Under the pieces are notes generated by a model. That model ran no database searches, was not told the DNA's origin, and saw only the letters and a list, made by a program, of their open reading frames with translations. The position numbers and the translations under genes are program-made. A DNA stretch of 63,828 nt, filler included, from Rozella allomycis CSF55 (Eukaryota), in assembly GCA_000442015.1 (NCBI GenBank). It is 9 parts of 9 records of this genome, joined end to end, with 100 filler letters (N's around TTAATTAATTAA, not from the genome) between each part and the next. Parts side by side here need not be neighbours in the genome. Positions count along the whole stretch, not along the records: positions 1,839 to 9,262 come from KE561296.1; 8 more parts are not named here. One strand, given 5' to 3'. Every line of letters begins with the position of its first letter. Positions within the stretch are counted from its first letter, which is position 1. Shown here piece after piece: positions 1,739 to 56,897 of the stretch.

Positions 1739-1941
1739 NNNNNNNNNNNNNNNNNNNNNNNNNNNNNNNNNNNNNNNNNNNNTTAATTAATTAANNNNNN
1801 NNNNNNNNNNNNNNNNNNNNNNNNNNNNNNNNNNNNNNTTACCAAAGTGTCGTACGAAAAACAAAAATCCAGCAGTTCTACGAGCGAGGAAACCATAAAA
1901 ATTTAGTGGCTTGGGCAACATTGAATTTTATTTGTTATTTT

Positions 1942-2578
1942 TTAGTCTTTGGTTAATGAATTTAAATACTGATCATCTTCTTTTCGAACTTGTAAGAGTA
2001 GTCTCTCTGCCTGACCAGCCTGATCATAATAAAATTTGAAAACAGGGCTTCTTTTAATGTACATTTTGTTACTAACGATGAACCTGATTGTTTTGATGCT
2101 TTCATCTAGAGAATTTTGAATGATGTCCTGTATGTGTTAGAATGCTAGGCATTACTCTTGGGATGTCTGAGTCATCGTGTACAAAGTAACCCACCCTACA
2201 GCTTTGCAGATTTCTAGATATGGATACCTAATGCGATAGATGCAATTTGTTTTACCTATTGTGATTGATGCAGCGATAATACTTGAGTGATTTCCCAGAC
2301 TGGTTTAGCGAGAACTTCCATTGATTTTTGAGTGAACGTAGTTTGAGGGCTATAAAAAATGAATTCAAGATGTTTTTTTATTTCAGCTTGAAATCGTTTT
2401 TGGCGTACACTTTCAATTTCATGTTTGTTTGATTCCAAGTTGAATTTTTTACTGGAATGAAAGGAAATAGAGTTTACACTGAATAGGATTTGGTAGTGTT
2501 GGAGTATAATCTTGGGGAGAAAAGGGAATGAAAAGAGGAAAATGGGAAAAGAATGGATTGCCTATTTAAGTAAGACAT
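1942..2578 (-). CDS. RBFA: Mitochondrial ribosome-binding factor A (RbfA-like)
   Basis: Spliced product: presequence-like MSYLNRQSILFPFSSFHSLFSPRLYS, then RQKRFQAEIKKHL, EITQVSISRNLQSCRVGY, IRFIVSNKMYIKRSPVFKFYYD (RbfA pattern). Introns 2452-2477, 2256-2282 + 2228-2255, 2128-2155. Confidence 0.7.
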
Positions 2579-2596
2579 GAGAAGACCCTGGCATAC

Positions 2597-5189
2597 ATGA
2601 CCTCAGAGAAGCAGTTTAAAAATATAGTTGAGAGTTTGGAGAATATGAATTATAAGCAAGCGTTGAATTTGTGTAATAAAAGCTTGAAAAAGGATAGCAA
2701 GAATAATAGGATGTTGATATTAAAGGCGTATAGTGCAGCTAAAGTTGGCAAGGATGATGAGGCTGTGAAGGTGTTGGAGAGTATTCCTTTGGAGGCTGTG
2801 GAGGATGCGTATGTGATGCACTATGTTACAGTTTCATGCCGAGCGTTATCTAAGCCAGATTTGTTGAGTAAATATACGCAATACCTTTATGAAAAAAACA
2901 GCAAGGATGAGGAGCGAGCAGCGCAACATTTTTCGTCGCTTGTGCGATTGATGGATTTTAAATCGCAGCAGCAAGTAAGTTAAATTTAGACTATGGAATA
3001 GCTTGCGTTGAAGATGAATAAAACATTCAAGGAGCCAAGGTATGTGTATTGGATGATAGTGAGTGCCTTTTTGCAGAGTGAGAGTAAAGAGTCGATTGGG
3101 GTACAGTTGGCAGAGAAGATGTTGATGAAGTTGTTTAATGAAGGCAAAGTGCAAAATGCAGAAGGTAATTAGCGATTGATGAGAAATAAAGAATTTGGGT
3201 TGTTGCTTCTTGTGTTGGAAAAGATTGGCAAGTATGAGGAAGCAATGAAGTTGATTGAGAGTGAAAATGGATCTAAGCTATTTGAAAGCCAGGGGTTAGA
3301 AATAGAAAATGAAATGAGAAAATTTGAGTATTTGATGCAAACAAAGAGATATGAAGAGTTGTTTAAGAGGATTGTAGAGAGGATGAATGAAATGAGGAGT
3401 GAAGAAGAGTAAGTGATGTGATTGTGATTAAAAGGGTTGAGCAATGGACTATTTATTCTTATTTACTAAATTGTGTTTCAAATGTGAAAGAGAAAGAAAA
3501 AGAAGCGAAAGAAGTTTTAGAGGATTTAATTACGAAATTTCCTAAAGCGAGAGCACCATTGTTGGCCAAAATTGAATTTTGTAGTCTTTATGAAAGAAGT
3601 GAGTTTGTGAAGAGTGTTTTTGAATATTTGAAGGTTTATGGAGCGAAGCCATTTTGTTTTTATGATTTGAAGCCAGCGATTGTGAATATGAGCGCAGAAG
3701 AGAAATCAGAATTTCTTGAAAGGTTGAATTTAGACTTGAAAAGGGAAGAAGAGAGAGAAGGGGTTAAGGGGGAAGAAGTGAAAGGGGAACTAGTGAAGCA
3801 TGAAGATGTAAGTGAGCCTACTGTAGCAGATGAACCTACTCCTACTGTAGCAGGTGAAAGTGAGCCTACTGTAGGAGGTGAAAGTGAAACTACTGTATCA
3901 GGTGAACCTACTCCTACTGTAGAACCTACTACGGCTACTGAAGCTTCTGATGTCACAACTGTTGATACCCCTAATGAAGCTCAAAATGAAATTCAAATAT
4001 TTTGTCAAAAGGCCATGCTGGCTATCGCTGCAGAAGTAGATCCAGAAATTCTATTAAATAAATTGCAAAAATTGAATGTGAATGAAAATGAAGATTTAGC
4101 CACAATCTATTTTTTTGCTAAATTTAGAAATGGAAATTTAAATGTAAAAAATTTTGAATTGTTGAATGAATCTACCAAGCCACTAAGATCTATGAAAAAA
4201 TTAAATTTTTATTCAAAAATGATCTTGATTAGATATTATGCATTGATTGGCGATTACAAGAAATCTTATTCTCTGTTTAAAGAATTGGAAATCAAAAACA
4301 TTCAGCTGGACGCCCTCAGCTATTTGATCAGCGACATTATTGTTCATTTAGATCCATTCGACTCTGCTGAATTCTGTAAAAATGCTTTGGAAATTTACAG
4401 ATCTAATGACGCTGAAACCCCTGAATATATTATGAATGCTTATCTACAAGGGTCATACACCAGGGTGTTTGATTTCACTGAATTCTATTTTCATGTTGAA
4501 ACTTCAATCCAAAGAGAAGTCCTCGCCAGACAAGAATTAAGATGCAAACTAGTCCATGAAAGATCTCTAGATGAATTAGAAAAACTCTTGGCCCAAGATT
4601 ATCCTCTACAACTCTCCTACCAGGGTAATGGAAAAATAGATCTAAAATAGATGAAAATTTAGCACTTCTCACAGACACACGTGATTTAATGGCCTTTCCA
4701 AATTATCTACCAAATCTAATCTCACCTCTAATTTCCACAAAAGAAGTTTCAATCGAGTGGCTTAAATACTACGCCATCATCTTTCAATTGTTGCATTTCT
4801 CCATTGTAAATGACTCTGATAAACTAAATGAATTCAATTCTCTTCTCATTCAATTAAACTTTAGCCACTCTCAAGTATTCCCTTTAAATTAAATTCACCT
4901 AGTTCTTCTCAACTGTATTCGCTTATCGGTTGGATGAAAACGCTCTCATCGCTGAATTTCCATCTGCTGAAGATTCAATCGACTCTATTGAAGTAACGTC
5001 TTCTTTTTCAATTAATAGATTGTCTCTACCATTCTTTTGGCTTTAAGAGAAACAATCAAATCAAAATTATCGCCTAGAAGAAAATCTTCCATTCTCTCTT
5101 TACTAGACAAATGCAAATCATTCTTGCCAAAAGATTCACATCGTCATAAATGGATCGATTTCTATCTCAAACAAATTCAGTCTCAATAA
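2597..5189 (+). CDS. NAA25: NatB N-acetyltransferase auxiliary subunit (Naa25/Mdm20)
   Basis: N-terminal TPR-like region, DFKSQQQ, YGAKPFCFYDLK, ELEIKNIQLDALSYL; six canonical 26-28 nt introns. Confidence 0.9.
3808..3935 (+). repeat. Coding minisatellite (AGTGAGCCTACTGTAG / GAACCTACTCCTACTGTAG units) inside NAA25
   Basis: Encodes SEPTVADEPTPTVAGESEPTVGGESETTVSGEPTPTVEPT. Confidence 0.8.
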
Positions 5190-5424
5190 ATTTATACTAT
5201 TGTATTTTAAATATTTTAAATATTCTTTTTTAGAAAAGATAGCAATGAATATTCAAATGTCTTAAATGTATTACTCCTTCAGCTGAATATGTTTCAGTCA
5301 AATATAGTTTGCAACGATGAAATCATTGAAAAAATACTTTTTATTCAACTGCTAAATAAAGAATCAGCCATCATTAAATTGTTAAATGCTTGTATAGCCC
5401 AATAGTTTAAGAATTTATGCTAAC

Positions 5425-5672
5425 CATTTCTATAGGCATAACTTTGATCTACTCTTTCATCTGCAAGCAATAATTCAACAAAATCCGCATGACCTTTGTA
5501 GGAATCTCACTTTATACCATAATTTTTATTGGCACTTGGATCTACTCTATCATCTGCTAGCAATATTTTAACCACAGCCGCATGACCATTACGTGATGCC
5601 CACTTTATAGCATAGTTGTCATTGGCACTTGGATCTACTCTAGAATCTGCTAGCAACAGCTTTACAATGTCG
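5425..5672 (-). pseudogene. Ankyrin-repeat gene relic (LLLADxRVDPSA family)
   Basis: DIVKLLLADSRVDPSANDNYAIKWASRNGHAAVVKILLADDRVDPSA, followed by in-frame stops. Confidence 0.75.
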
Positions 5673-8600
5673 TGTGCCACCTCCCGAAATCTACCTTCAA
5701 AGCATAGTCTTCGTTCACCGATGGATCAAACTGAGTGTCATTCTTAAAACTATAATTATGCCTATTTGTGATTCCATGTTGGCACGCAAACTGAAATGCA
5801 AAGTTCATCTCCTGTTAGGAAATTACATTTTGGTTGAGGAAGTGCATAAAGTAAACGAACCTTTCCCTGTTTCTCCTAATTCCTAAAGGAGAAAATATCC
5901 GAGCAGACATTCACAAGCCTCCATGTGCCTGTTTTTTCGAAATTTCGTAATCCATAACAGTATTTAGTTTTCATAGTTCGACAATTGTTTTCGTGTAAAT
6001 GTGGCAAAGACGCCTATTTTCAACTTTGATTCTAGGGTTAAATCCAAATTGAGTTCAAATAATGATCCGTATTCATTTTCACGAAAGCCTCTAGTAGAAT
6101 ATCTGTGCCTAAACTGACAATACATTCATTCCCCTTTTCATTGATTTTAACACCTTTCTTTATAAGGTATTGTGTTTCGATCACAATGTTACATTGGCAA
6201 TCAGGGACATAGAGAACTCCCCCAGCGATCTGCCTAAAACCTGACCCGTCACACGTTCTTTAAAGCCTGATGACACCCCTATGCGTGATCTTCAATTGGC
6301 AACCTCGATTTTTATTGCCACCAGACTTTCAAGAATCACTTTGTTTCCGCTCGTGTGATTAGTTCTGGCTCACGAAAATTTGCAAATTGTACCAAGTGAT
6401 CTATACGCACGACAATGGTAGCAAGAAAGACCAATTCTCTCGTGTTAGTAATTTCGCGATTACCTGATGACATTTTTGGGCTTCCGTCATTGGCACTCCT
6501 GTAGCCGCTCTTTTTTCCAAAACTGACCTCAGTACACTTAAGACCTTTACCTATCACCATTATCGGTGAGCTTAATTTGTTCCAATTTTTCAATTAACGA
6601 ACTGTAATATTCGGAATCAGTCCTGTCGTTATACTTTTTCATATCTTCCCAAAGTTGTTTGGCATTGCCGAGCGTGCCCTGCTACTATAATAAAACTGAT
6701 CGTCGCTTGACTATGCGCAGAAGATGTCCAAAGAATTTTCCGTTGGTCATTCTAACACGTTCGAGTCTGCTAGAAATTTTCTCCCAGTAGTTTTTGCTCA
6801 TAAGTCACCCAGACGTGATAGTTGTCCTAAGTTGTCCTTTTGCCAAGATTGTGTACTGTGCGTTGATGTTGCGTTTCGCCATGCCGGGACTCTGAATGCT
6901 TTAAGAAGAGATTTGATTGGGGCGCGGTCAACAGATATCTATTTTATTAAGGATATTTGTCTGATTGGTTAGCTGCATTCACGTTTGTTTTTCTTCGATC
7001 CCTGTTACGATTCGTGCTATTCATAGAAACTGTGCTTTTTCTTAACAAGCGACCTGTATAAAACGCTTGCGGAACTTCTTGGGTATTTGTACGACGCTGT
7101 GTGCCCAACCAAACAGATTATTTAAATCACGGCCAGTATATGCACGCAACTAGCGTAATGCATTGCCAACGGTGGATCGATATCGGCCATCTACCTACAT
7201 CGGCCTATACAATGTTGCATATCTATCATTGGTTAAAGCCTGACATGCGTTTGTAAAAAGGAACTACAAAATGTAGTAATTGATAACGGACATTATCAGC
7301 AATTAAGTTTTGTAATATTCAATCTCAAACAATCTATAACCTATATAACCTTAGATGTCCGAAAATACTTATCCTCATTGAAAATTTATCTATAGAGACC
7401 CTGAAATAACAAGTGTCAAGCATTCACATTCTCCATCGAAATGTCACATAGGTGGCAATCATCCCTGCGGGCATCGATCGAGGCTAGATGGGGAAAAAAT
7501 ACAATGAAACTAACTGTAGAGTACAAACGCAAACTACGATGGAAACTGCGCATAATATGCTTTTGGATGGCACTGTGAAGTTTACCAGTGAAGATAAATA
7601 GTTTTAGGCGACGGTAGCAAAAGGAGATAATTTGGCAAATGCATTTTAACAGGCCGTGGTAGTTTTGAAAGGACTAGAACATTGAACCATGCTTCTAAAC
7701 TTTATTGTCCGTGAGTGGAAGCCGTTTCTGGATCTGTTTTTGTAACAATGGCAAACATTGCAGAACAAGACGCATTTCATATCGTGAATACCAAATGAAT
7801 TTAAATTTAAAACCTTATTACCATTTAGCAAGTGCTATAAGAAATGAGAACAAAAGTCTAAATACTCAAAAACCACGCAAACATTCAAAGTTCCCCATTA
7901 CCGTAATAGTGCCTATAAATATGGAGAAATCGTGCAGCAAAGATGATCACAATCTTGCTTATATATGAAGAAACCTGTTAAAGGGATACAAATTTTGCTA
8001 ATATACATGGGTGTTGCTTTTTTACTAAAGCGACAAAACAAGTGCAAAAATAACAGTGTAAGATCACAATACTCCATAAAAACAATTGCTACATTAGTAA
8101 TGATTACATCTGCAGTTGGTTGATACAAAATGGATTATAATCCGGAAATTAGATTTACAAACACCTGGACTGCAATGCATTAAGCGAACGTATAACAGTA
8201 CTTGTAAATGATATTTATCGATTATGAATATACGCTAGCAAGCTTCCAAAATCTAAACGGGCGCCGTTTTTTGAAAATATGAATTCTCTCCGTATTTATA
8301 TATGTATATGTATTTGTAAATTTCATTTAGAAAGTTTAAACCACACAAATCCACACAATGCATATATGTTCCAATGGTCCTATATAGTCTTGTGTTTAGG
8401 TTGCTTACCTTTGGATGAAGATGGATTTTTAGGATTTGAGTGGGTTAAAATGCCAATCGGACAAACAAAATATCTTTGAATTGCGTTTAGCATTTTGCGA
8501 AAAATTACGACGGCAAATACCAAAGACCAAGAATTCAAGAGCCTTTAAAACCGAAATTCAGGTTTTCCGTTTGACGCAACACCCAAAATTTTGCATTTCT

Positions 8601-9963
8601 TGATAAGTTCAGAGCATTTTGGAGATTTTCATGACCTATGTTCATATGAATAGGCGACACGGATGTCCAGGAACCAACGCTATATATTAAAAATATCTCA
8701 AAACCTATGACGAATTGAGCATAAATATTCAGGCGACATTTGCTTTTCATTCACTTAGACCCTTCAGTTTACTTTACGCGTTCATAAAGACATGTCGGAG
8801 TTCAGTATTAAGCTAAACTCGGACTCAATATGCATCGGATTCTAATGTGGGCTGGACGATTAACCAATTCAAATTAACAGATACCGGAAGATAGAAAATC
8901 GCAGATTGACATTAAGGCATAACATTATTAAGCAAATTTTACAGCAAAGTTGGGTTTTTAAAATTGTGTTCTTTTTTTTTAATTATTGAATCACGAACTT
9001 CTTTGCTGTGACGACTCTAAATTGAGTTGAATGGCACATTGAGAACTTTTTGTTTGCTGTCAAACAAACACGCACATCGCAGTTATATGAATCGTGCTGC
9101 GTTGGAACATCTTCACTTGATCCAATGTCTTTTGTTGGGCATGCCAAGTTTTGTTTCATAATCGACATTCAAACTCAATAATAAACTTGAATTTATTTAG
9201 CGCCTTTCAGTTTAAACTGCTTGTGACTATCAAACCAATCAATTTTCATTTCTTTCGGATATNNNNNNNNNNNNNNNNNNNNNNNNNNNNNNNNNNNNNN
9301 NNNNNNTTAATTAATTAANNNNNNNNNNNNNNNNNNNNNNNNNNNNNNNNNNNNNNNNNNNNTCTGAAATGGCAGATCTACAACTGGTAAAGGATTTAAT
9401 AACCCTTAACATTTATATCTTTTCATGATTGAACCATTGACTTTTTAGAAATGTTCTACTGAATTCAAATGATAATAAAGTCAATTCAAATACCTTTCTT
9501 ACCGTTAGATTTAATGAATTTCATTTAGAAAAGTTTAATCTGAAAAATGGTAGTGGGGACAATGGATCACAATGTTATAACTAATAAACCTCTCTCAACA
9601 GAGATGTGGCATGTCTGTGGATAGGAATCAATTAATGCTCAGTTTCCCCTTTAAATCTCCTAAATGCATTTTAATAAAATCAATAGATCTATTCGAAAAA
9701 TTAAAATTGTTTTAAACATAATCAATATGTAAAGAAACATATTTAAATCTATCCCGTGAACATAACGTTCGAGGAAACATTACATTATTGCTATATAATA
9801 CTACGTTTTGCGCTGCATGTAAAGCCTTATCATGGTTTTCTAATGTTACATATGCTACCAACCCTTTCATGACCAGTTGCTCAATTTCGCCAGCAAAAGA
9901 ACTTCCCAATAAACAATTTTAATGATTCAAATAGTGTTCCGGCTTACCACCTACGGTAAGTTT

Positions 9964-10070: not shown

Positions 10071-13000
10071 ATGACTACCACTGAACTTTCTTCTACTACG
10101 TCTGGTCATGCTGATCTGCCAGCACCACGCACTCACGTCACTACGCTAACCATCGGCTGTCCCCTGAAAGGCCAAGAAAACTTTGAAGAATGGGCCTGCC
10201 AAATGAAAGTACTCTTAAAGGCACATCAACTGTGGGACAACAAGCAGGATAGTCCCAAAACCGAAAATACTCACGCACATCATGCCATCGTTAACAACCT
10301 TGACAAAACCTTGATTCACTTAGTTCTGGACACCGTTGACGCTTCTGATGCATGGGAACGACTTAAAAGCCAATACAAGAGTGAAAGCGTTCCTAGGAAA
10401 CTCAAATTTATTCAAGAACTTATTGCGCACGACTTTGCTATCGGTACTCTCGAAGACGGTTTTAATCGTGTGGCAACGCTTGAAAGAAATCTTACAGCAT
10501 CCAATGGCTCTGATAGTATCAAAATTACCGACCTGACTTTTCTCATTGGGGTCTCCGCTATCGTCATTATGAAAATACGAAAACTTGTGCAAACGTTTCG
10601 AAGACCAACGCAAAACCAGCTGCCATGCTTGCCGTCAAATGGGTGGCCGATTCTGGATGTTCTGACCACATGGTGAACAATAAAGATCATCTTGATTTTT
10701 ACGCTCCACAGTTAGAAACAATTCATGTAGCCAACGGTACTAATATGACTTCCGAAGGAACCGGATCAATGTCCTATCAAGCCAACAATTTTCAAGGCAT
10801 AATCAAAAACATAATACACTGTCCTTCACTTTCTCATAATCTGCGCTCTATAAGCGAATTTGCTGATCACGGTCTATCCACCATCTTTACGAAATCTAAA
10901 TGTTTGTTTTAAAAGGTAATATTGACGAATTCATAGCGGAAAGTTATGACAGAATTGTTCTGGAAGGTAATCGTGAAGATGCGCTGTACACACNGCTATC
11001 GTCATTATGAAAATACGAAAACTTGTAAGACCAACGCAAAACCAGCTGCCATGCTTGCCGTCAAATGGGTGGCCGATTATGGATGTTCTAACCACATGGT
11101 GAATAATAAAGATCATCTTGATTTTTACGCTCCACAGTTGGAAACAATTCATGTAGCCAACGGTACTAATATGACTTCCGAAGGAACCGGATCAATGTCC
11201 TATCAAGCCCACAATTTTCAAGGCATTATCAAAAACATAATACACTGTCCTTCACTTTCTCATAATTTGCTCTCTATAAGCAAATTTGCTGATCACGGCC
11301 TATCCACCATCTTTACGAAATCTAAATGTTTTGTTTTAAAAGGTAATATTGAAGAATTCATAGCGGAAAATTATGACAGAATTGTTCTGGAAGGTAATCG
11401 TGAAGATGCGCTGTACACACTTCAAACGGAGAAAATGCCGAAAGCAAGACACTACTCAACTTTGGCATAATCGGTTGAATCATATTAATTTTCAAGAACT
11501 AAAGTCACTGGGCTCACGAGTATTTGGATTGCCTCCGTTTACCAATGAAAACTTGAATTCTAATTCTTGCATTGCAGCAAAACAAAAGCGAAAACCTTTT
11601 CCGCATTCATCAACGACAACAACGTGTATCGGAGAATTAATTCACCACGATGTATCTGGCAAGTTTCAAGTAGAGGGAATGAATGGTGAGTTTTACTATT
11701 ACGCATTTTTAGATGACTTTTCAAACTTTCTTATTANTAAAATGCCGAAAGCCCTTCAAGCAAGTAAAGACACTACTCTACTTTAGCATAATCGGTTGAA
11801 TCATATTAATTTTCAAGAACTAAAGCCATTGGGCTCACGAGTGATTGGATTACCTCCGTTTACCAATGAAAACTTGAATTGTAATTTTTGCATTGCAGCA
11901 AAACAAAAGCGACAACCTTTTCCGCATTCATCAACGACAACAACGTGTATCGGAGAATTAATTCACCACGATGTATCTGGCAAGTTTCAAGTAGAGGGAA
12001 TGAATGGTGAGTTTTACTATTACGCATTTTTAGATGACTTTTCAAACTTTCTTATTATTTACCTTTCAGCAACCAAAGATCGTGTTTTTCAAGCTTTTGA
12101 AGAGATCAATAATCGCATTTTTAATCTAACTGGGCGTAATATACAATGTGTTAGGTCTGACAATGGAGAATTAAATTCAAAAGAAATGATTTCCTTCTGT
12201 AAGCAGAAAGGTATCCGCAGGGAGCTAACAGTTCCGTACACACCTCAGCAAAATGGTAAGGTTGAGCGAATGAATCAATCACTTTCAAACTGGCTTCGGG
12301 CAACATTATTTGAATCACAACTACCCTTAGAACTTTGGCCGGAAGCATTAAAGTACATAACGTATACAAAAAACATGACCGCAAAATCTAAAGACATCTC
12401 GAAGACACCCTATGAAGTTTNAAATTCACCACAATGTATCTGGCAGTAGAGGGGATGAATGTTGAGTTTTACTATTACGCATTTTTAGATGACTTTTCAA
12501 ACTTTCTTATTATTTACCTTTTAGCAACTAAAGATCGTGTTTTTCATGCTTTTAAAGAGATCAATAATCGCATCTTTAATCTAACTGGGCGTAATATACA
12601 ATGTGTTAGGTCTGACAATGGAGAATTAAATTCAAAAGAAATGATTTCCTTCTGTAAGCAGAAAGGTATCCGCAGGGAGCTAACAGTTCCGTACACACCT
12701 CAGCGAAATGGTAAGGTTGAGCGAATGAATCAATTACTTTCAAACTGGCTTCGGGCAACATTATTTTAATCACAACTACCCTTAGAATTTTGGCCGGAAG
12801 CATTAAAGAACATTACGTAAACAAGAAACATGACCGCAAAAATCTAAAGACATCTCGAAGACACCCTATGAAGTTTGGTTTGGGCGAAAACCAAACATTT
12901 CACACTTAAGACGGTTTGGCGACATTGGGTTTGTTCATCAACATAAATCCCAACGTCAGGGAAAATTGGCTCCACGTGGAAAGGAAATGGTATTTATTGG

Positions 13001-15135
13001 GTACAGTGAGGAAGCAAAAGGTTATAGGTTAATAGATATGAATACCAGAAAAATATTCATTTCACGCGATGTTCAATTTATTGGTGCAAGCTTCTTTGAC
13101 ACAGAAACTGAGGACAAACCTGAACTTCAAATTGATGACACAGATACGTTTTTCGACTCTAATTTCAGTAATCACATCAATAATGACAGTGCTTCTGACC
13201 CACACAATATCGATAATAGTGACATTACGGATGAACCGATTCAGCAACAATCTTTCTCCCATTTATATGAAATCTCGGAACGCAATATATTACCAGAAGG
13301 ATCCAAGCGTAACCGATCTAGAAATGAAATCCATCAGGTCTTCATGCTATCTAAACAAACTATCTCTGAAGCTCCAGAACATTATCGTGATATTGAACAC
13401 CGTGCAGTTAAAGAACTCTGGTATCAAGCTGTCAAAGAAGAATTTGATGGACTTAACTCTCATGGAACTTAGGAGCCCGCAAACACAGTTCCAAATGACA
13501 GGGTACCAATTGGCGGCCGTTNTAAAATATTTATTTCACGCGATGTTCAATTTACTGGTGCAAGCTTCTTTGACACGAAAACTGAGGACAAACCCGAACT
13601 TCAAAGTGATGACACAGAAACGTTTTTCGACTCTGATTTCAGTAATCACAGCAATAATGACAGTGCTTCTGACCCACACAATATCGATAATAGTGACATT
13701 ACGGATGAACCGATTCAGCAACAATCTTTCTCCCATTTATATGAAATCTCGGAACGCAATATATTACCAGAAGGATCCAAGCGTAACCGATCTAGAAATG
13801 AAATCCATCAGGTCTTCATGCTATCTAAACAAACTATCTCTGAAGCTCCAGAACATTATCGTGATATGGAAAACCGTGCAGATAAGGAACTCTGGTATCA
13901 CGCAGTCAAAGAAGAGTTGGATGGACTTAACTCTCATGGAACTTGGGAGCCCGCAAACACAGTTCCAAATGACAGGGTACCAATTGGCTGCCGTTGGGTG
14001 TTTAAATTAAAAAGGAACGCTGACGGATCAATAAGTAGATATAAGGCTCGTCTTGTGGCCCAAGGATATTCCCAGATTCCAGGTGTTGATTTTGAAAACA
14101 CTAATGCACCAGTCGCTTACAAAGATTCTCTGAGATTATTTCTATCTTTATCTATGATTTACGGCTTTACTATTGATCTGATGGATATTGTGCAAGCATT
14201 TCTTATTCCAACCCTAACTGAAACAATTTTCATGAAAATTCCGGAAGGTCTGAACCAGATAAATTCGCCGTGCCTACGTCTAAAGAAGGCATTATATGGG
14301 CTGCGACAGGCGCCANATAAAGAACTCTGGTATCAAGCTGTCAAAGAAGAATTGGATGGACTTAACTCTCATGGAACTTGGGAGACCGCAAACACAGTTC
14401 CAAATGACAGGGTACCAATTGGCTGCCGTTGGGTGTTTAAATTAAAAAGGAACGCTGACGGATCAATAAGTAGATATAAGGCTCGTCTTGTGGCCCAAGG
14501 ATATTCCCAGATTCCAGGTGTTGATTTTGAAAACACTTATGCACCAGTCGCTTATAAAGATTCTCTGAGATTACTTCTTTCTTTATCTATGATTTACGGT
14601 TTTACTATTGATCAGATGGATATTGTGCAAGCATTTCTTATTCCAACCCTAACTGAAACGATTACCATGAAAATTCCGGAAGGTCTGAACCAGATAAATG
14701 CGCCGTGCCTACGTCTAAAGAAGGCATTATATGGGCTGCGACAGGCGCCAAAATGTTGGAACGAGGAAATTGACTCATTTTTAAAAGGTATAGGGCTCAC
14801 TGCTTCGTACATGGGCTGCGACATGCGCCAAAGCGTTGGAACGAGAAAATTGACTCATTTTTAAAAGGTATAGGGCTCACAGCTTCTACAATCGATCCCT
14901 GCATTTATGTGGGTAAAGTGAATGATGAACTATTTTTGTTGGGACTCTATGTGGATGACATCATAATTGCAGGAACTCCAGAAACCAAGAAGATTATTTT
15001 GAAGTAAAAGATTTGGGGACAATGAAGTATTGTCTTGGTTTTGAAGTTGAACAACACCCTGAACAACATTATTTAATTATGCATCAAAATTCGTTTATTG
15101 AAAACTTGCTACGAATTACCGGGATGGAAAATGAA
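10071..15135 (+). pseudogene. Copia gag-pol fragments (gag, protease, integrase, RT)
   Basis: ENFEEWACQMK gag; WVADSGCSDHM protease; LWHNRLNH..C..C; VRSDNGE..PQQNGKVERMN integrase; RYKARLVAQG and LYVDD RT; stops, frameshifts and overlapping duplicates at single n joins. Confidence 0.92.
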
Positions 15136-26553: not shown

Positions 26554-29547
26554 TTAACCGTCAGATTCTTCATCATCCGTATGCAATAATTTTCCTTTTC
26601 CGCCATCAATGAGCCACTTCAATTCTCTTTCTCTTCTTCTAGCCGCTTGAGCTTTCAATTGATTTCTAGTTAGTTTCTTCTTTTTATTCTTGACGTTTTT
26701 AACGACGCTATCATTGTTGCTATCTTTTTCAGATGAATTATTTTGCGAGTCTTCAAAAAGAGATTCTTCCGTTTCACGTTTGCCTGAAATGACAAGTTTG
26801 GAGTTGGCGACATTCCAGATTTCTGGACATAAAGCTTTGATGAATTCGCTGTTGTGGGAGATCATGACTACAGCGCCGCCCCAATCGCGGATTGCAGTTG
26901 CGAGGCCACCGAGAGCGTCTCTGTCTAAAAAGTTTGTGGGTTCATCCAGGACAAGCAAATGCGGATTGTTCCACATACAGGCAGCAATCACAACTTTAAC
27001 TTTTTGACCGCCAGATAGACCGCTGATTGAATTGTGAAGAGCGATTGACGGATCCAAACCGACATCTTGAAAATGCTTGCAAATTGCTTCATGCGTTAAT
27101 TCTCTGTATCCCAAACCTTCTCGTGAAGCTTCATAATCATCAAACGCTTGAACCAACTTTGAAAATCCATTTTCTATTAATTCTTCCCTGGGAATCCACG
27201 TGTTCCAGCGATGCTCTAAATTCTTCCATTTGATTTCGTATTGAAACGATTTCTTCAATTTTTGTCTACCAAAGATGCATTCAACGAAGCGTGATTGACC
27301 GTTAATTGAAATTGGCTTTTCCAACAACTTTTCTTCTTCAGGGGTTAATTTTCTTGATGCTTTTAAAAGAATTTCTCTGTCTTCTCCACCTTGATAACGC
27401 CAACGTAAATAAGCAGCTGGCGTGTCATCTTTGTGTTGCTCCAAATGATGAAATGCATACTGCGCCACATACCCAATGCGCAAATTTGGATGTTTTTCAA
27501 TCAAACCAGAGTCAGGGATTAATTCTCCAGTCATTAATTTAATTAAAGTTGATTTTCCAGCACCATTTTGACCAATAATGCCAACTCTTGATGAAAGTGA
27601 TAATTGACAAGAAACATTAACTAGAGCGGCTGTTTCTCTGCTTGGATATTTAAACGTTACATTATTCATCTTAAGAATCGCTTTCGTTTGGCTTTTCACT
27701 CCAGCAAGAAACGCTGGTTTAGGAAACACAAATTTCTCATCTGATGAAAGAGTGTAATAAGCTTTGGCTTCTGGTTTAATCTTAACAAATGCACTTAGAT
27801 TGCCAGGGTAGTTGACTAATTTTTTAGTTTCATAATGAATGATATCTGAACAAACATTATCAAGAAATGCAGAATCATGAGAAACAATCAAACAAGTAAT
27901 TTTACATTTCAAAAGATATTCTTCCAACCACTTGACATTAGTTTCATCCAAATGATTCGTTGGTTCATCCAATAATAAAATGTCAGCCTCCAAGAGAATC
28001 GCTTTTGCCAACTCCAATTTCATCTTCATCCCTCCACTCAAACTCTTCACTGGGAAATTAAACATTTCTTTTCCAAATCCAACTTTTATTAAAGCATTTT
28101 CAACTTTTTCTCTTTTAATGTTTTTAATTCTTTCATTTTCTAACACAAAATCAAACAGCGCTAAATCTCCATTCTCCCCTTGCAACGCATGCTCAACTAG
28201 AACAGTCTTCAACTCTACTGGAAACCCTTCCACTTTCCCTTCTGAAATCGCTCTCATCAACGTTGTCTTTCCAACTCCATTTCTACCACAGAGCCCATAT
28301 CGCCTTCCCTTCTTCAACTTCAAACGAGTTCTATTCAACAATAACATCCCTCCATAGCCCAAACTAAACTCACAGTTGCACAAATCATCTTCTGTATCAT
28401 CTACACCTTCCTCTGTATACAAATCCTTGTCTCGCTTCTTGAAAAACTCAATCACCCAAAGTCGCTTTTCCAAACACTCAAACGATAAAACTTTCTCCCA
28501 CTTTTTATTATTAAATTGTCTTTGCTTTATCAACTTCACCAACATCGGTACAACAAACTCAGCCTCTGGTATTTCCCACCTTACCAATCCTTCAATCTCT
28601 TCATCATCCATCTTAATTGCTCCAACTCTCTTCTTCTCCAATATATCCTTTGCCATCTGCGACAAATTTCTAATCTCAGGAAACGAAGCCGTCTCTATCA
28701 TTCTATCCAACCAAGGCAACAACATCGGTGCAAACACCTCCACATCATTCGCACTTCTCACCATCTCCATCAAATTCCTTATAATAATAACAGTCCTTCT
28801 CGTAGTCACAGACGACCGTATCGACAATGCTCGAACCAGCAATGGAACCAAAATCGCCAAAGCAGCCCTCGTCACATCAGCCACAAACGTCGTCGCCTCC
28901 AATTTCTGAATCACATTCTCCAACTCACTAGGCACGGCCATCGTATGGATCAAATCATCCATCAACGGCTGTATATCCGGATTCCCAACAACCCCGCCAA
29001 TCACCCGCATACTCTCCTTCGCAGCGTCAGACACCTCCGTCTTGATCTCATGCATACACAGCGATATCGGCTCGATAATGTCTGCCAAACAATTAGCAAT
29101 CAACTCGGGCTCATTCTTCGAAATCTCAGCCAACAACTTTACAGCAGCAACCTTCGCCTGCCACTTGCCATTCTCCATAATATCATACAACACAGGCAAC
29201 AAGTAACACTCCATCACAGTCGGAGGCAGCAAATCAACAAGCTCGCTAATCGCATTGCGCGCAGCTGCTCGCACAGGCTCGCCCTTGTCGCCATGCAGCT
29301 CCAAAATTACATCCACATACGCAAGCACCTGGGGCACTACAACTACCCCAACTTTTTTCAGCAATACTTCGAATCCTATCATCGCACTCTCTCTGTTAAA
29401 GCCGGACTTGTGTTTCGCATTCTTGGCAAGGTTCTCGAGAATAGATGTATCGTAGCTCTTTTGATATTCTATAGCTACTTTTTCAGCTGTTTCATAACAT
29501 TCTTCACTCGTATCGCAAATGTAGAGCTTTTGAAGAAGTTCCTCCAT
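26554..29547 (-). CDS. NEW1: eEF3-family ABCF ATPase, New1/Elf1 type
   Basis: HEAT repeats, two ABC cassettes, chromodomain insert GRQKLKKSFQYEIKW, C-terminal KKKKLTRNQLKA..RRR..W..TDDEE typical of New1/Elf1. Confidence 0.85.
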   Translation of the reverse strand: MEELLQKLYICDTSEECYETAEKVAIEYQKSYDTSILENLAKNAKHKSGFNRESAMIGFEVLLKKVGVVVVPQVLAYVDVILELHGDKGEPVRAAARNAISELVDLLPPTVMECYLLPVLYDIMENGKWQAKVAAVKLLAEISKNEPELIANCLADIIEPISLCMHEIKTEVSDAAKESMRVIGGVVGNPDIQPLMDDLIHTMAVPSELENVIQKLEATTFVADVTRAALAILVPLLVRALSIRSSVTTRRTVIIIRNLMEMVRSANDVEVFAPMLLPWLDRMIETASFPEIRNLSQMAKDILEKKRVGAIKMDDEEIEGLVRWEIPEAEFVVPMLVKLIKQRQFNNKKWEKVLSFECLEKRLWVIEFFKKRDKDLYTEEGVDDTEDDLCNCEFSLGYGGMLLLNRTRLKLKKGRRYGLCGRNGVGKTTLMRAISEGKVEGFPVELKTVLVEHALQGENGDLALFDFVLENERIKNIKREKVENALIKVGFGKEMFNFPVKSLSGGMKMKLELAKAILLEADILLLDEPTNHLDETNVKWLEEYLLKCKITCLIVSHDSAFLDNVCSDIIHYETKKLVNYPGNLSAFVKIKPEAKAYYTLSSDEKFVFPKPAFLAGVKSQTKAILKMNNVTFKYPSRETAALVNVSCQLSLSSRVGIIGQNGAGKSTLIKLMTGELIPDSGLIEKHPNLRIGYVAQYAFHHLEQHKDDTPAAYLRWRYQGGEDREILLKASRKLTPEEEKLLEKPISINGQSRFVECIFGRQKLKKSFQYEIKWKNLEHRWNTWIPREELIENGFSKLVQAFDDYEASREGLGYRELTHEAICKHFQDVGLDPSIALHNSISGLSGGQKVKVVIAACMWNNPHLLVLDEPTNFLDRDALGGLATAIRDWGGAVVMISHNSEFIKALCPEIWNVANSKLVISGKRETEESLFEDSQNNSSEKDSNNDSVVKNVKNKKKKLTRNQLKAQAARRRERELKWLIDGGKGKLLHTDDEESDG

Positions 29548-29878
29548 GAAAAAAGTAGTGGCTGAGTTACGTTCATATGGTTTAACGGAGGCACAAATAG
29601 ACTATACTCACTGATTGTTTTGGAAAATAAATATTTCAATGTGCAATTATTCTCTCTGTTATAATGGTCGTATGTGTGCAGATTATGACTCCTGATGTAC
29701 CTGCATCAAATAGCAATAATAGCAAAAAGTAAAAAAAGGTGCACAATACTCTATTTATTAATAATATTCATCTAAAGTTGTTAAAAGACAACTTTGAGTG
29801 TTGAAAGTGCATTTGTTAGGTATTCAACGAGGTATGTACCTTACCTAGGTTCATACTAGCCACCAAAAATTAATCAGC

Positions 29879-30023: not shown

Positions 30024-30123
30024 NNNNNNNNNNNNNNNNNNNNNNNNNNNNNNNNNNNNNNNNNNNNTTAATTAATTAANNNNNNNNNNNNNNNNNNNNN
30101 NNNNNNNNNNNNNNNNNNNNNNN

Positions 30124-33897: not shown

Positions 33898-34996
33898 CTA
33901 TTTATTAAATTTCCATAATTTTATACTCTTGTCACCATCAGTCGAACCCGATGCTATCAATAAATTGGATGAACATGCATCCACCGCTAAAACAGGCCCT
34001 TATTATATTGAAATGTAAAAAAAATAATACCTGAGTGGCATTCAATTACAAATGAAATACTTTTTGATTGTAAATCCCATATGTAAAATTTGTTTTCATC
34101 AGACCCGCTAAGGACAAATTGTGAATTATCGTCAGCAGAGAAAAATGTTGAATAGCAACAGAATTTTTGATTTTTATGACCTTGATATGTTTTAATTGGC
34201 TTTGCGGCTTGAACATTCCATAATCTAATCTTGCTATCTAGAGATGAAGACAGGAGATATTTTCCGTTTGGCGAAAATTTCACATGAGATCTATTTTAGC
34301 ATAAAGAGGTGGTTACAATGGTGGGTTATCATTATCAATGAAGGTTTTGAGACAATTCCCGTTAGAGGAGTCCCAAATTCTAATAAGTCCATCATAACTG
34401 CATGAAGCAAGAAGGGTGCCATCCGGTGAATAATCTAGTCCTGAGACAGGATCTGCATGTGCGGGAAGTGTATTTAGACATTTATCTGATTATTGAGCTA
34501 AAATACAATAAATACTTCCTAGTGTATCCCAAATTTTAATAGTCTCGTCAAATGAGCCAGATGCTAACAAAGTTGATGCTGGATTAAATGCAACGTTGAA
34601 CACGTAATTATTGTGCCCGGAAAATTCTCTGATGCAAGATGACTATATTAAGAAATTTAACTATTTAATTACTGTTCTTTTATCCCAGACCATAACTCTA
34701 GCATCATCTGAAGCAGAGGCTATAAAATTCCCATCCCTTGACCAGCACAAATCTGATATTCCCTGTAAGTGACCTTTTAACGTCGCTGAACAATTTAAAG
34801 TTTCAGTGTCGGTTAATTTAATTTCTTTATCAGTGGCTATATCACAATGAGAAAGAAGGCTACCAGATGAAGCAATGAGATTTCCTTGAGGACAAAACTT
34901 AATGCAGGAAATGGAGCCTTCGTGAATATTCAAAGTATTTAGTATTGTTAAAGATTGTGTATTGTTTGTTCGGCTATGATAGAATGTTGAATTCAT
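33898..34996 (-). CDS. WDR5: WD40 protein WDR5/Swd3 (COMPASS)
   Basis: [47 protein letters not shown]; five short introns. Confidence 0.88.
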
Positions 34997-50038: not shown

Positions 50039-51787
50039 TTATTCAATTATTTCATACGACCATATTCTTGCTCTACAGTCACCCGATCCAGTTGCGAAAA
50101 GCGAGCCATGAGGACTTTGCGTCACTGAAATCACTAGATGAAAATAGAAAACACATTGTACCAGAATTTTTATGACCTTGAAGAATAGCATGCATTTCAG
50201 CCGTCTGAGGATCCCAAAATTGAACCCTGAATAAAGTCAAAGGATAATAGTTACGATCTGTCTTTGGATCCAGATATGGCCCACATTCCATCATTTGAGT
50301 ACGCAACAGAAAGAACATAATCTTTGTGTCCTTCAAATGTGTGCTTGCAAGCGTCTTTGATTTCAGAGTTTAAATCCCAAATTTTTAAGGTTTTATCAAG
50401 AGATCCAGACAAAATCATCTGACCGTTAGGGGAAAACGCAACTGAATAGACAGAATCTTTATGTCCTTCAAGTTTATCAATCGGCTTTCCACTTTCTGCG
50501 TCCCATAATCGAATCGTTTTGTCGAGAGAGCCGGCGGCTATTAACGTTCCATCGGGACTATACGCTACTGATGTTATTCCGCCCTCTTTTTGACTTCCAT
50601 CGTCACTAGAAAGAATATGAACAGCCTATAAATATATCTAAAAATTATTACTTCCCCAGATTCAACGTCCCAAATCCTGGCAGTCCTATCGCCACTTCCA
50701 GATATGACGAAACGTCCATCTTTCGAAAACTCCAGGGAATAAATATCTTGCTCATGACCGTGAAATATTTTCTTTAGTGTCTTTTCTTCCAAGTCCCATA
50801 TCTATTAACAATTTTTTTTTCGAAAATTTACCCTAACTGCCTTATCTTCAGCCCCGGTAGCAAGAAATTTGCCATCTTTACTGAAAGCCACAGATCTGAT
50901 GTATAAATCTCCTTCTCCAGCATTTTCATCTTCTAATACACTCTCAAAATTTATAATATCCCTTACGCTATCTTATCACCAGTTTCAACATCAAATATTT
51001 GAGTTGTTTTATTACAACCGGTAGCTAAAAATTTGGCATCATCACTAAACTTCACACAGCACACTACACTCAAATGATCAATCGAATGATGTAATTCAAT
51101 GTTAATTTTTCGTGGCATATTTGGATTGTATCTATTGGAAAATAATATTAAGCGTTACATGACATTCCAGTCATTTCCCTCTTTTTTATGAGTAGTAGGA
51201 ACTTGGCTCGGGTCGATATTATGAAAAAATGATTTCTTTGGATCAGGCAAAGCCTTCACAACTTGGGGTTGTGACTTTGGCACCATAGGTTTCACAGGAA
51301 ATGTTGGTGGTACAGAATTTGATTGAATATCTTATTAAAAATAAATACAATAATTTACTTGACGCTGGTAAAGAAGGCAGAGAAACTGACGATGAACTTT
51401 CTTCCAACCTAGGGCGTTTTAGGGTTACTGCTGGATCTCCCCCTCTCGCTTCTAGTTCTTTTTTTAATTTAAATATTTCGTCCTCATATCTTAAAAAATC
51501 AGACTCTACATTTTACTGTTGTTTCATTTTTAGATGAGCTCTCTCCAGCTCATAGACGTTTTTTTGGATCTGGATAATTTCATTTATTTGAGATTGAACT
51601 AAAAATAAGACAGACTATTTTTACATACCTAGAACTACTAAAAATATCAGCAAGTACCTTTATGTTCAAAAGATTCTCGTTGCACCGAAAGGTCTTGTGT
51701 AGATGTCTCATATTCCTGTTTTAGTGAATCCAATAGCTCATAAAAACGACTGGCTGAAGTTGTAGCCGCTGGCCGATGCCCATACAT
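50039..51787 (-). CDS. TUP1: General transcriptional corepressor Tup1
   Basis: Tup_[38 protein letters not shown]40 repeats; includes twin introns 51599-51657. Confidence 0.92.
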
Positions 51788-52068: not shown

Positions 52069-52569
52069 ATGACAAGACCAACTGAGAAAAGGCATGTTTC
52101 GAATGGCCAAAGAAGCGATGACAGAAACTCAAATTTTCAAAATAAAAGAAGAATATTTGTGGATAATAAAAAAAGTTTGAGTGAGAGGTAAAGAATTAAT
52201 CATCTTTAATATAGGTAAATACCTTAGTAGTTACTTGAAAGGTTCCAGTCAGTTTCAGAGGAGCGTCGCAAAAATATGATAAGTAGAAAACGCGATAGGT
52301 TTTCAGTACCTGAAAAAATGCCAATGAAAAGGGACTTGAGGCCAAGAGGCTCGAATTCAAATTTTCACGGCAGAGGAAATTTTAGAGGTTCATCAAGTGC
52401 ATCAAGAAGCAAAAATCTATCCAGAATCTCGAGAAATAATAAAATGCCTCTTGACAAAGAAAAGCTCGATGCGGATTTAGACAAATACATGATGAAAAAT
52501 GAGAACTTCGCAAAGGCAAAGCTAGACGAAGAGTTGGATAATTACATGGCTATGGACGAGAAAGAATAA
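52069..52569 (+). CDS. CHTOP/FoP-duplication RNA-binding protein
   Basis: SLSERF motif after splicing, RG-rich middle, duplicated LDADLDKYM/LDEELDNYM. Confidence 0.75.
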
Positions 52570-52633: not shown

Positions 52634-53375
52634 ATGCATTTATTTGGTAGGGCGAAGCCAAAAAGCACTCCTAAAGATGCTATAGCAACTCTAAGAGATG
52701 CACTGGAAATGTTAGATAAACGAGAAAAACACCTTGAGGTGAGGTATAATAATGAAACAAAAATGGCCCAGCAAAATGCTAAGAATAAAACAGGTAAAAA
52801 CATTTTCCCTCAAATTACACAGGTAAATTAAAACCTCTTAAGTTAGTTAGTGGCTCTAATGGCGCTAAAACGCAGAAAACAAATCTCAAATGAAATGGCC
52901 AAGGTTTCGGCGTCCAAAATGTCTTTAGAAGCACAAATGATGACGTTGGAAAATGCGAATCTGAATCTGGAAACCCTTAAGGCAATGAAGACAGGTTCTG
53001 AAGCACTGAAAAACATCCATGGTGCCATGTAATATATTCTCAAAGCTGTTATTTAGGGATATAAACAAGGTAGATGCAACCATGGATGAAATTCGGGACC
53101 AAATGGATATTGCCAATGAAATTTCTGAGGCAATCGCACAACCTCTTGGAAATGTTCTTGATGAAGACGAGCTATTAGAAGAGCTAGAAGAATTGGAGGC
53201 CGAAGCCTTGCATCAAGAAATGACTGAAAAGCCCACAACTGTCCCTAATCTACCTAAACCTGGTAATAGTCGATTATTTCATATTACAACAGTTAAAGTC
53301 GGACAATCCTCATCTGAGGAGAAGTTGGAAGATGAAGATGCAGAATTAGAGTTACTACGTGCATCCATGACTTAA
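52634..53375 (+). CDS. SNF7: ESCRT-III subunit Snf7/Vps32
   Basis: AIATLRDALEMLDKREKHL, ALKRRK, DKVDATMDEI, DEDELLEELEEL. Confidence 0.93.
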
Positions 53376-54924: not shown

Positions 54925-56897
54925 TTAAGTTTGAGTTAAGTTGTCTATCAGATGATTGTGTTCTACGGAAGGAGGCTTGTTATCATGACATGTTTCAATT
55001 GACTTATACCAGGCATCTTCCATTATGTCGTTAACGTTTATTCTCTTTTTACAATCCGGTTCAAGAATCTTAAACATAAGTTCTTTGGCGCCACTAGGTA
55101 ACCGGGCTAATGGTTCAAACTGAATACCTCTGTGCTCAACGAAATAACAATAATTAGGGTCTTCAATAGTAGCTTTGGCCCAAGGTATACCCCTAAAAGT
55201 TGTTGCGTAATAAATGATCCCACACGCCCAAATGTCAACTAACCGAGCGTCATACTCAGTTTGGGTGAATTCTTCTGGTGCAATGTACGGAGTTGAGCCA
55301 CAGACCCCTTTAGATAAATGAGGCTTCTTCTCCCAGCATATTCTAAACACTTCGGAGACTCCAAAGTCAGTTATCTTTAGCCTTCCATGCATGTCAATCA
55401 ATAAATTTTCAGGTTTCAAATCTCTATGAGCAACACCAACTGAATGAAGGTAACTAACTCCTTGAATAAGTTGCTTGAAACAGCAATCAATTTCTACAAC
55501 CGTCATCTGCCCACCACGAATAATCGAATACAAATCTCCACCTTTTGACAAACAAAGGAAGGTTATTTACCTGAATAGTATTCCATCACCTCATACCAAT
55601 GGCTTCCATCACGAATAATATCCAAAGTTTCAACAACATTCATATGATGCAACATGGACCCTATGCAATATTCGGAAGTCATTTTCTTTATGTAGTCTCG
55701 ATACGCTTCATCCTTTTTCTTCTTTCGAAATTCTTTTATTGCAAATACTTTCTCTCCAGCTCCACGCCTAGCTAATCTCACAGTACCACCAGCGCCTTTT
55801 CCTATAACCTTAGTGCTAAATATGTGATAGTCATCGAATGTATGAGGTTCCATTGGAAGTAGTTTAGGGTTGGAATTGGAAGCGGAATCATCATCATGTG
55901 CTTGTTGAGTTTGCTTTCTTTTAATCTTTGGTGAATTCAAAAGTTCTTTGATTGGATCTAAAATTCCTTTTTTATGCACTGAAACATCATGATGAGATCT
56001 AAACAAGTCAGTTTGACTGCCGCTTTTCGATAAAGAGGGTTCTGGAGTTATTCCACGGGAATTATCGTCATCGTTTGAAGGGCTCAACTTGAGTGTATTC
56101 TTATCTTTATCATGATCGTTATGCGAATGAAAATCACTCTGGGAGGATGAGTTTAATAAATGACTAATATGAGTCTTGGAAAACAATTTCTTCATGTCAC
56201 TTTGCTCATGAACAGAATCAGATGACGATCGTTCAGTTTTTCGTAAAATATTCGGTGATGCATCCCTGGAGGAATGACTTGTTATTCCATTAGATCTTGA
56301 AGAAGCGGCGCGCTTTAGTTTCGGTGAAGTAGCACGGCTAGAATCCGCCGGTGTATGAGCCCCAGATAAACTAAATAACTTAAACTTAAACCGATTTTTC
56401 TTTGTGCCTTCTTGTGTAGTTGACTCTTCACTCTCAATTGATTGTTCGCATTCCATTGTATGGTCTTTTTGCCGGTGGACGCTGGACTCATGACTTTCAG
56501 ATGAAATGCAACCAATCTACTTACCTTTCGAATGAATTGAATCAGGTATAATTGAATGAGATGAATCAGCATTCAATAACTCTTTAATATCTTCATTTTC
56601 ATCGACAGCGCTATTAGTGCTTTTTATAAACGACGGCAACTTTTTCATACTGCTATTGCTTCTTTTTCTGTCCAAATATTTTTCCAAATTATTTTTGGAG
56701 TTATTCCAATGAATTATATTTCCAAGCAAATCATAGGCCACGTCCGAACCAATGAGGAATGGCGTTTCGCATTTACAAACCTCAGCGCACGATGAACAAA
56801 GCCAAAAAGCATCAGAGAATTGGCCTCTGGCGGAAAATTCAGCACTAGTTAATGCGGCAGTACATATCAATGGCATATTAAATTCCAACAAGCCCAT
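54925..56897 (-). CDS. Ser/Thr kinase, Sat4/Hal4/Npr1-type; 5' extent uncertain
   Basis: [44 protein letters not shown]. Confidence 0.85.

Follow-up and report, generated by a model that had tools for sequence, protein, structure and literature searches.

Two abutting intron-sized units make up a 55-nt interruption in an RbfA-like gene of Rozella allomycis

How is a 55-nt interruption removed from a transcript when it consists, from end to end, of two intron-like units that abut without an exon base between them? An RbfA-like gene of Rozella allomycis CSF55, located on the minus strand at positions 1942-2578, raises this question, which touches on two broader problems that are still open—the origin of new spliceosomal introns and what sets intron length in minimal-intron genomes. 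The gene lies within the piece 1839..9262 of the window, i.e., the whole stretch of DNA analysed here (63,828 nt). In this window, eight linkers of the form N44-TTAATTAATTAA-N44 (1739-1838, 9263-9362, 30024-30123 and five more) join separate contigs, such that adjacency across a linker is meaningless. Positions 12800-15100 of the window encode a reverse transcriptase of the Ty1/copia type (RVT_2, E 2e-79) whose segments are internally repeated, with one 62-nt string present twice (13977-14038 and 14412-14473) and many single Ns; this region likely represents nested or tandem retrotransposon copies, or else an assembly problem.

The model proposed for the RbfA-like gene is composed of the following features, given in the order of transcription:

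Exon 1: 2478..2578, minus strand; predicted start codon ATG at 2578..2576, encoding a 34-residue, presequence-like N-terminus without acidic residues.
Intron 1: 2452..2477, minus strand; 26 nt, GTAAAC...TTCCAG, predicted from the sequence; its excision puts the ATG at 2578 in the RbfA frame.
Exon 2: 2283..2451, minus strand; 3' end ...MEVLAKPVWEITQ, read as GAA ATC ACT CAA (EITQ); the RbfA profile alignment continues gap-free into exon 3.
Unit A: 2256..2282, minus strand; 27 nt, GTATTATC...CACAATAG (GTATTA...AATAG), phase 0, length a multiple of three, with the acceptor TAG in frame.
Unit B: 2228..2255, minus strand; 28 nt, GTAAAACA...CGCATTAG (GTAAAA...ATTAG), causing a frameshift if retained.
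Exon 3: 2156..2227, minus strand; VSISRNLQSCRVGYFVHDDSDIPR, opening with GTA TCC ATA TCT (VSIS) and carrying the best-conserved RbfA motif, V.vSrDL..A.V.
Intron C: 2128..2155, minus strand; 28 nt, GTAATG...CTAACACATACAG (ending in ACAG), over which the profile alignment stays colinear.
Exon 4 with its TAA stop (1944..1942): 1942..2127, minus strand; match to Pfam RBFA (E 0.024) at profile positions 62-96 of 105.

With four intron-sized GT..AG units removed, the full model extends over 175 aa from ATG to TAA and contains no internal stops. No in-frame ATG was found upstream of exon 2 that could be reached without an intervening intron; two ATG-plus-intron solutions exist in this region, and only the combination of ATG 2578 with the 26-nt intron has a good donor (6.8 bits). 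Residues 1-34 of the model include three R/K, no D/E and 11 S/T—an acid-free, S/T-rich composition that would fit a mitochondrial presequence, and the gene product is probably mitochondrial. Only 18 nt separate this predicted ATG (2578, minus strand) from that of a divergent gene for a NatB auxiliary subunit (2597, plus strand; 2576-2599), and the promoter or 5' UTR of each gene would then need to sit inside the other gene.

The interruption occupies 2282..2228 on the minus strand, exactly where the earlier note had placed it, and is split at TAG/GTA (the slash marking the boundary) into 27 + 28 nt, both of the form GTA...TAG. At the seam, ...CACAATAG/GTAAAACA... at 2256/2255, the inner 3' splice site directly abuts a 5' splice site. 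When both units are excised, the frame reads EITQ followed by VSISRNLQSCRVGYFVHDDSDIPR, with a gap-free RbfA alignment at the joint—in agreement with the claim of the note that the 27+28-nt excision restores the frame. Keeping unit A adds VLSLHQSQ and ends translation at the acceptor TAG, which is in frame, and keeping unit B gives VKQIASIALGIHI before a stop, i.e., a frameshift with premature termination after 13 codons, so the different fates that the note had assigned to the two retained halves were both recovered; keeping both units has the same outcome as keeping A. In a long and noisy list of frame-compatible GT..AG solutions, donor A appears with the 55-nt one only, which has an inner AG/GT at 27/28. 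From frame and homology, we infer the removal of exactly 55 nt, a conclusion that each of the two supports. Since both demand the loss of all 55 nt, they leave the number of steps unspecified.

The homology side of this argument depends on weak similarity to RbfA. With exons queried singly, exon 4 matched Pfam RBFA (PF02033) at 15.4 bits vs. a curated cut-off of 34.7, and no match to this family was obtained with exon 2 or exon 3 alone. A protein query with E. coli RbfA and a scan of genome contigs each retrieved enterobacterial sequences alone, whose diversity was too low for profile building; this set was replaced by our own profile of 30 domains, taken from a bacterial phylum in which 61/61 genomes matched PF02033, and the exon joins were scored against it. 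The product with both units out reached 13.8 bits and that with A kept 7.9, whereas none of 200 shuffles exceeded 4.7. The alignment spans profile positions 28-93 (AKPVWEITQVSISRNLQSCRV vs. glgvvtvtavevsrDldhakv) and is gap-free at both joints and colinear over intron C, while in the A-kept product it begins only past the insert. The same order was returned by hhalign (58%, E 9.6e-5, with both units out; 25% with A kept) and by the narrow enterobacterial profile (12.5 vs. 11.0 bits). The N-terminal helix gave no significant alignment to the RbfA profile, and exons 2 and 4, when compared with PDB sequences, produced chance-level matches only. The name RbfA-like, as used in the earlier note, is thus plausible but not secure: the colinear profile match speaks in its favor, and the Pfam score of exon 4 stays below the curated cut-off.

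Relatives of this gene were sought with exon 4. This query retrieved no protein of 108-2000 aa from a large protein collection, a range from which a model of <108 aa would escape, and the 592 pattern matches among metagenome contigs included no relatives. The RbfA-like gene seems, on weak evidence, to lack an entry among public proteins, unlike the MCM4 of the window, which has a named Rozella one. A metatranscriptome with the same species label had a word share of 0.00 with positions 1900-2600; two short, partly fitting contig pieces fell within 1839-9262, none of them on the RbfA-like gene.

The dimensions of the two units become meaningful against the intron population of the window. All high-confidence introns from an open-frame screen measured 24-32 nt (46/46), with a mode at 26 nt (n=14 at 26 nt, n=8 at 27 nt and n=8 at 28 nt), in a set chosen with a 24-33-nt filter. 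Above 33 nt, screens by open frames alone were too noisy. In these 46 introns, A occupies position +3 in 97% of the cases (GTA) and position +4 in 80%, and the tail preceding AG is T/A-rich. As a filter-free control, we used a simple parser of genes in which the length prior was flat; although crude, such that a rare long intron could escape, it placed 31/41 and 46/57 introns at 18-32 nt in two runs. The longer parser calls that were inspected had a complete mini-intron at their start or end and all corresponded to skipped small exons with flanking mini-introns, to merges over intergenic DNA, or to cases with a mini-intron alternative available. The parser called neither the RbfA-like gene nor any stack of abutting introns, the stacks being missed because two units cost two penalties. 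No supported single intron >33 nt was found in the 63.8-kb window by these screens and the parser, which could miss a rare one. Units A and B, at 27 and 28 nt, fall inside the 24-32-nt class; the gaps in the public MCM4 model measure approximately 23-29 nt, and introns of approximately 30 nt are reported for the S23 gene of R. allomycis (PMC6349667). The MCM4 frame of the window matches the public Rozella allomycis CSF55 protein (98% identity; 98-100% per exon), and the elongation factor 3 (EF3) gene stays open for 1015 codons under the standard code; judging from this frame and the per-exon match of MCM4, the standard code applies. The EF3 gene (26554-29601, minus strand) is intron-free and has a chromodomain within its second ABC domain (Pfam Chromo, E 5.5e-11).

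We also examined the strength of the four splice sites and the odds of such an arrangement arising by chance. On position weight matrices (PWM), donor B (inner) scored 7.7 bits and donor A (outer) 4.6, with a training median of 7.8 and a 10th percentile of 5.0; acceptor A (inner) scored 2.9 bits and acceptor B (outer) 0.6, with a training 10th percentile of 4.2. Donor A and both acceptors thus lie under the training 10th percentiles and donor B near the median, the acceptor of intron C being likewise low (2.7). Unit A has T at +4, and starts with GTA as unit B does. In simulations of 200,000 trials each, an AG/GT that cuts a 55-mer into 22-33-nt units arose in 1.8% of interior shuffles and in 2.2% of random sequences with intron composition, and a TAG/GTA split in 0.2-0.3%. 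By pattern, the target is the sole three-unit chain in the window, a third unit being formed by the first 26 nt of exon 3 (2202-2227, minus strand; GTATCC...GCAAAG). Removing this segment creates CTG TAG, and it codes for the conserved VSISRNLQS, so we rejected it as an intron and kept it as exon; its start might nevertheless serve as a cryptic donor immediately downstream of unit B.

Comparison of the two halves revealed a likeness concentrated at their 3' ends. Units A and B agree at 14/17 of their final positions (TGCATC-ATC-CA-TAG), a value reached by 1/1034 background intron pairs, and neither half exceeded 10 with any of 46 other introns; the strong likeness is restricted to this stretch, which was picked post hoc. 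For the complete units, the end-anchored identity of 15/27 was matched by 4.7% of background pairs and the global score by 11.8%, with p 0.011 when the interior of B was shuffled. After the shared GTA, the 5' spacer is identical at 1/8 positions vs. 12/15 for the 3' block without AG (Fisher p 0.006, for segments likewise defined after inspection), and similarity over the first 12 nt does not rise above background. The shared block holds TC(A/T)AT at -13..-9, a putative branch-site position judging from the CTAAC found at the same place in intron C. Among the stacks of the window, only the RbfA-like one combines diverged 5' spacers with a 3' block conserved in its two halves, as would be expected were both acceptor regions functional.

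Both strands of the window were scanned for GTA..AG/GTA..AG with 22-34-nt units, followed by frame reading and Pfam colinearity. The scan gave 12 raw matches; after frame and homology checks, four stacks were retained and three were false. In addition to the RbfA-like stack, the retained ones are:

Tup1-like stack: 51657..51599, minus strand; 29+30 nt, GTACTT...TCTAG/GTATGT...TTTAG, confirmed by homology.
Snf7-like probable stack: 52794..52850, plus strand; 29+28 nt, the alternative being a 24-nt intron at 52823-52846 plus ten residues, GKNIFPQITQ.
FoP-like probable stack: 52188..52241, plus strand; 27+27 nt, both multiples of three with in-frame stops.

In the Tup1-like gene, Pfam Tup_N positions 1-32 lie just upstream and positions 35-61 just downstream of the gap; this colinearity means that exactly 59 nt must be removed. 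The downstream exon of the Snf7-family gene corresponds to Snf7 profile positions 43-98 (Pfam), its upstream exon having no match, and the FoP-like stack separates open stretches of 72 and 108 codons in one frame, the downstream one matching FoP_duplication (E 3e-15). In all three, the similarity of the two halves does not exceed background and the inner AG/GTA is kept—a feature partly built in, since the scan pattern itself demands AG/GTA. Among the rejected matches, those at 33999-34060 (minus strand, WD40 gene) and 55542-55596 (minus strand, kinase gene) have a first 'unit' that is coding by homology, to a WD40 repeat in the former case and to a kinase in the latter, and the match at 53287 is antisense to a gene. 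The pattern alone is insufficient, and stacked-intron calls need a frame or homology check.

Taken together, the sequence features make it somewhat more probable than otherwise that the 55 nt are two abutting U2-type mini-introns, probably derived by tandem duplication, with each unit spliced singly across an exon of zero length. One ancestral mini-intron, or its 3' part, would have been tandemly duplicated, after which the 5' spacers would have diverged and the block of branch site and acceptor would have stayed alike in both copies. Each unit would present a donor, a branch region and a first AG at genome-wide spacing, and would be defined and excised separately as a lariat of approximately 27 nt in free order. 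Were A to leave first, the transcript would read CAA/GTAAAA with the donor of B intact; were B to leave first, the AATAG of A would adjoin exon 3. Either order would work because the signals of one unit are independent of the removal of the other, and a transcript that retains either unit would encounter a premature stop. All other supported introns measure 24-32 nt, so the machinery would be used to that donor-branch-AG spacing, and donor A meets an AG at 27 nt; in this genome context, which includes the other stacks, 'two introns' is the natural reading. The term 'twin introns' of the earlier note stands in that the two abutting GTA..TAG units are complete and must both go, and fails in the strict sense of a stwintron, as the units lie side by side.

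A possible, though less probable, alternative is that the interruption is a single 55-nt intron removed in one step, with the outer GTATTA as donor, the outer ATTAG as acceptor, a branch site in the B half, and the inner TAG/GTA left as a functionless relic of internal duplication. In other eukaryotes, introns of 55 nt are ordinary and readily removed by the spliceosome in one step. Frame and RbfA alignment need just the total loss of 55 nt, and the partial likeness of the halves would suit a fairly recent duplication with inner sites yet to decay. Low PWM scores at all splice sites except donor B (4.6, 2.9 and 0.6 bits) count against the two-intron reading. However, the outer donor and acceptor that a one-step reaction would have to use are the weaker of each pair (4.6 vs. 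7.7 and 0.6 vs. 2.9 bits), which favors separate excision even with all sites but donor B being weak, and our screens found no supported single intron >33 nt in the window. Moreover, the 5' spacers have diverged to background, whereas the 3' block and both inner ends (GTA and TAG) have been kept; conservation of the 3' block of A without its 5' spacer would be expected if acceptor A is used, and unexpected for the front half of a 55-nt intron. The recurrence of stacks that keep the inner AG/GTA despite unlike halves, in three other genes, likewise favors unit-wise excision over a one-step reaction, as an argument that is only partly independent, the search having demanded this pattern.

Two further explanations would dispense with a pair of introns altogether. 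We consider it improbable that the locus is a non-working one—a decaying pseudogene or an assembly artefact in which the 55 nt stay unspliced. The missing counterpart of exon 4 in a large protein collection that does hold another Rozella protein of the window, the weak RbfA membership, a start codon reached via an extra intron, and a fragmented assembly with single Ns would all be compatible with decay or error; against it, four GT..AG removals leave a complete 175-aa frame that runs uninterrupted from ATG to TAA, colinearity of the RbfA alignment holds over two joints, and the halves differ at too many positions for a collapsed or duplicated read. Still less credible, and in our view very improbable, is the notion that only B is an intron and that A is coding, with its TAG read as an amino acid in a ciliate-type code and nine residues added to the product. 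The length of A (27 nt, a multiple of three) and the fact that the final TAG is its sole in-frame stop agree with this notion. Yet the organism is a relative of fungi, in which the 1015-aa EF3 and MCM4 (98-100% per exon) are open in the standard code, and the RbfA-like gene itself ends in TAA; including A lowers the RbfA score from 13.8 to 7.9 bits and the hhalign value from 58% to 25%, with an alignment that begins after the insert.

If the units are indeed spliced singly, as in the two-intron reading that we prefer, an upper limit on length would shape introns besides a lower one, and new introns could arise by the duplication of entire existing ones. We tentatively extend this idea to a doubtful, more general proposal: the spliceosome of this organism may accept only introns of approximately 24-32 nt, growth would then proceed only by head-to-tail copies of whole introns, each keeping donor, branch site and acceptor, and the resulting stacks would have to be excised one unit at a time, over zero-length exons. 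Were such a size-limited spliceosome to exist, intron birth by duplication and recursive splicing would be the same process, visible at many loci. From a practical perspective, gene-finding programs built to place a single intron in each gap will mis-model stacked loci.

Several known systems share parts of this layout. Recursive splicing at zero-nucleotide exons was first described for the ratchet points of Drosophila (bioRxiv 10.1101/006163), and abutting introns with a zero-nucleotide exon and two-step splicing are reported for BOT1 of C. neoformans (375 = 210+165 nt; bioRxiv 10.1101/224170) and for SPNCRNA.445 of S. pombe (bioRxiv 10.1101/226894). The Rozella stack resembles these cases in that an AG/GT inside the intervening sequence allows two consecutive reactions with no exon base left. 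In the cases described in these reports, the introns divided in this way are long (336-375 nt for the two yeasts, kilobases for flies), whereas the Rozella total is 55 nt, each unit has the standard minimal intron size, the layout recurs within 64 kb, and two-step removal is a prediction here; two stacked minimal introns represent the smallest possible zero-length-exon case. Among endogenous mechanisms of intron gain, the tandem genomic duplication of an AG/GT-bounded segment (Rogers-type) is listed in PMC7138796. In common with this model, the Rozella units are arranged head-to-tail, with a seam that is exactly AG/GT and a common 17-nt 3' block (14/17); they differ from it in that an existing intron or its 3' part would have been copied, with no exon sequence, and the unlike 5' thirds of the units speak against a clean, recent whole-unit duplication.

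Stwintrons, reported in filamentous fungi and Lipomyces (PMC7138796, PMC9024468 and PMC8469720), are defined in PMC7138796 by an inner intron lying within a donor, branch or acceptor element that belongs to an outer one, which forces the order of removal. The Rozella case is similar in having a complex intervening sequence in a gene of the fungal lineage and—as a proposal—consecutive standard splicing reactions. Unlike a stwintron, its units are complete and side by side before any reaction, with no signal split and either order allowed. Introns of approximately 25 nt in Paramecium and Nyctotherus (PMC5014332) and of 15 nt in Stentor and Blepharisma (PMC13685798) illustrate ultra-short-intron genomes that share with Rozella a narrow length class near the physical minimum and retention events exposed by premature stops. 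In the literature on Rozella or on tiny-intron ciliates covered by our search, which left most subscription journals outside and drew on partial texts, no description of abutting mini-introns was found. Zero-length-exon recursive splicing, tandem duplication as a source of introns and minimal-intron genomes are thus all known already; what sets this Rozella window apart is their combination—stacks of minimal introns, with a total of only 55 nt in the RbfA-like gene, that recur in one window.
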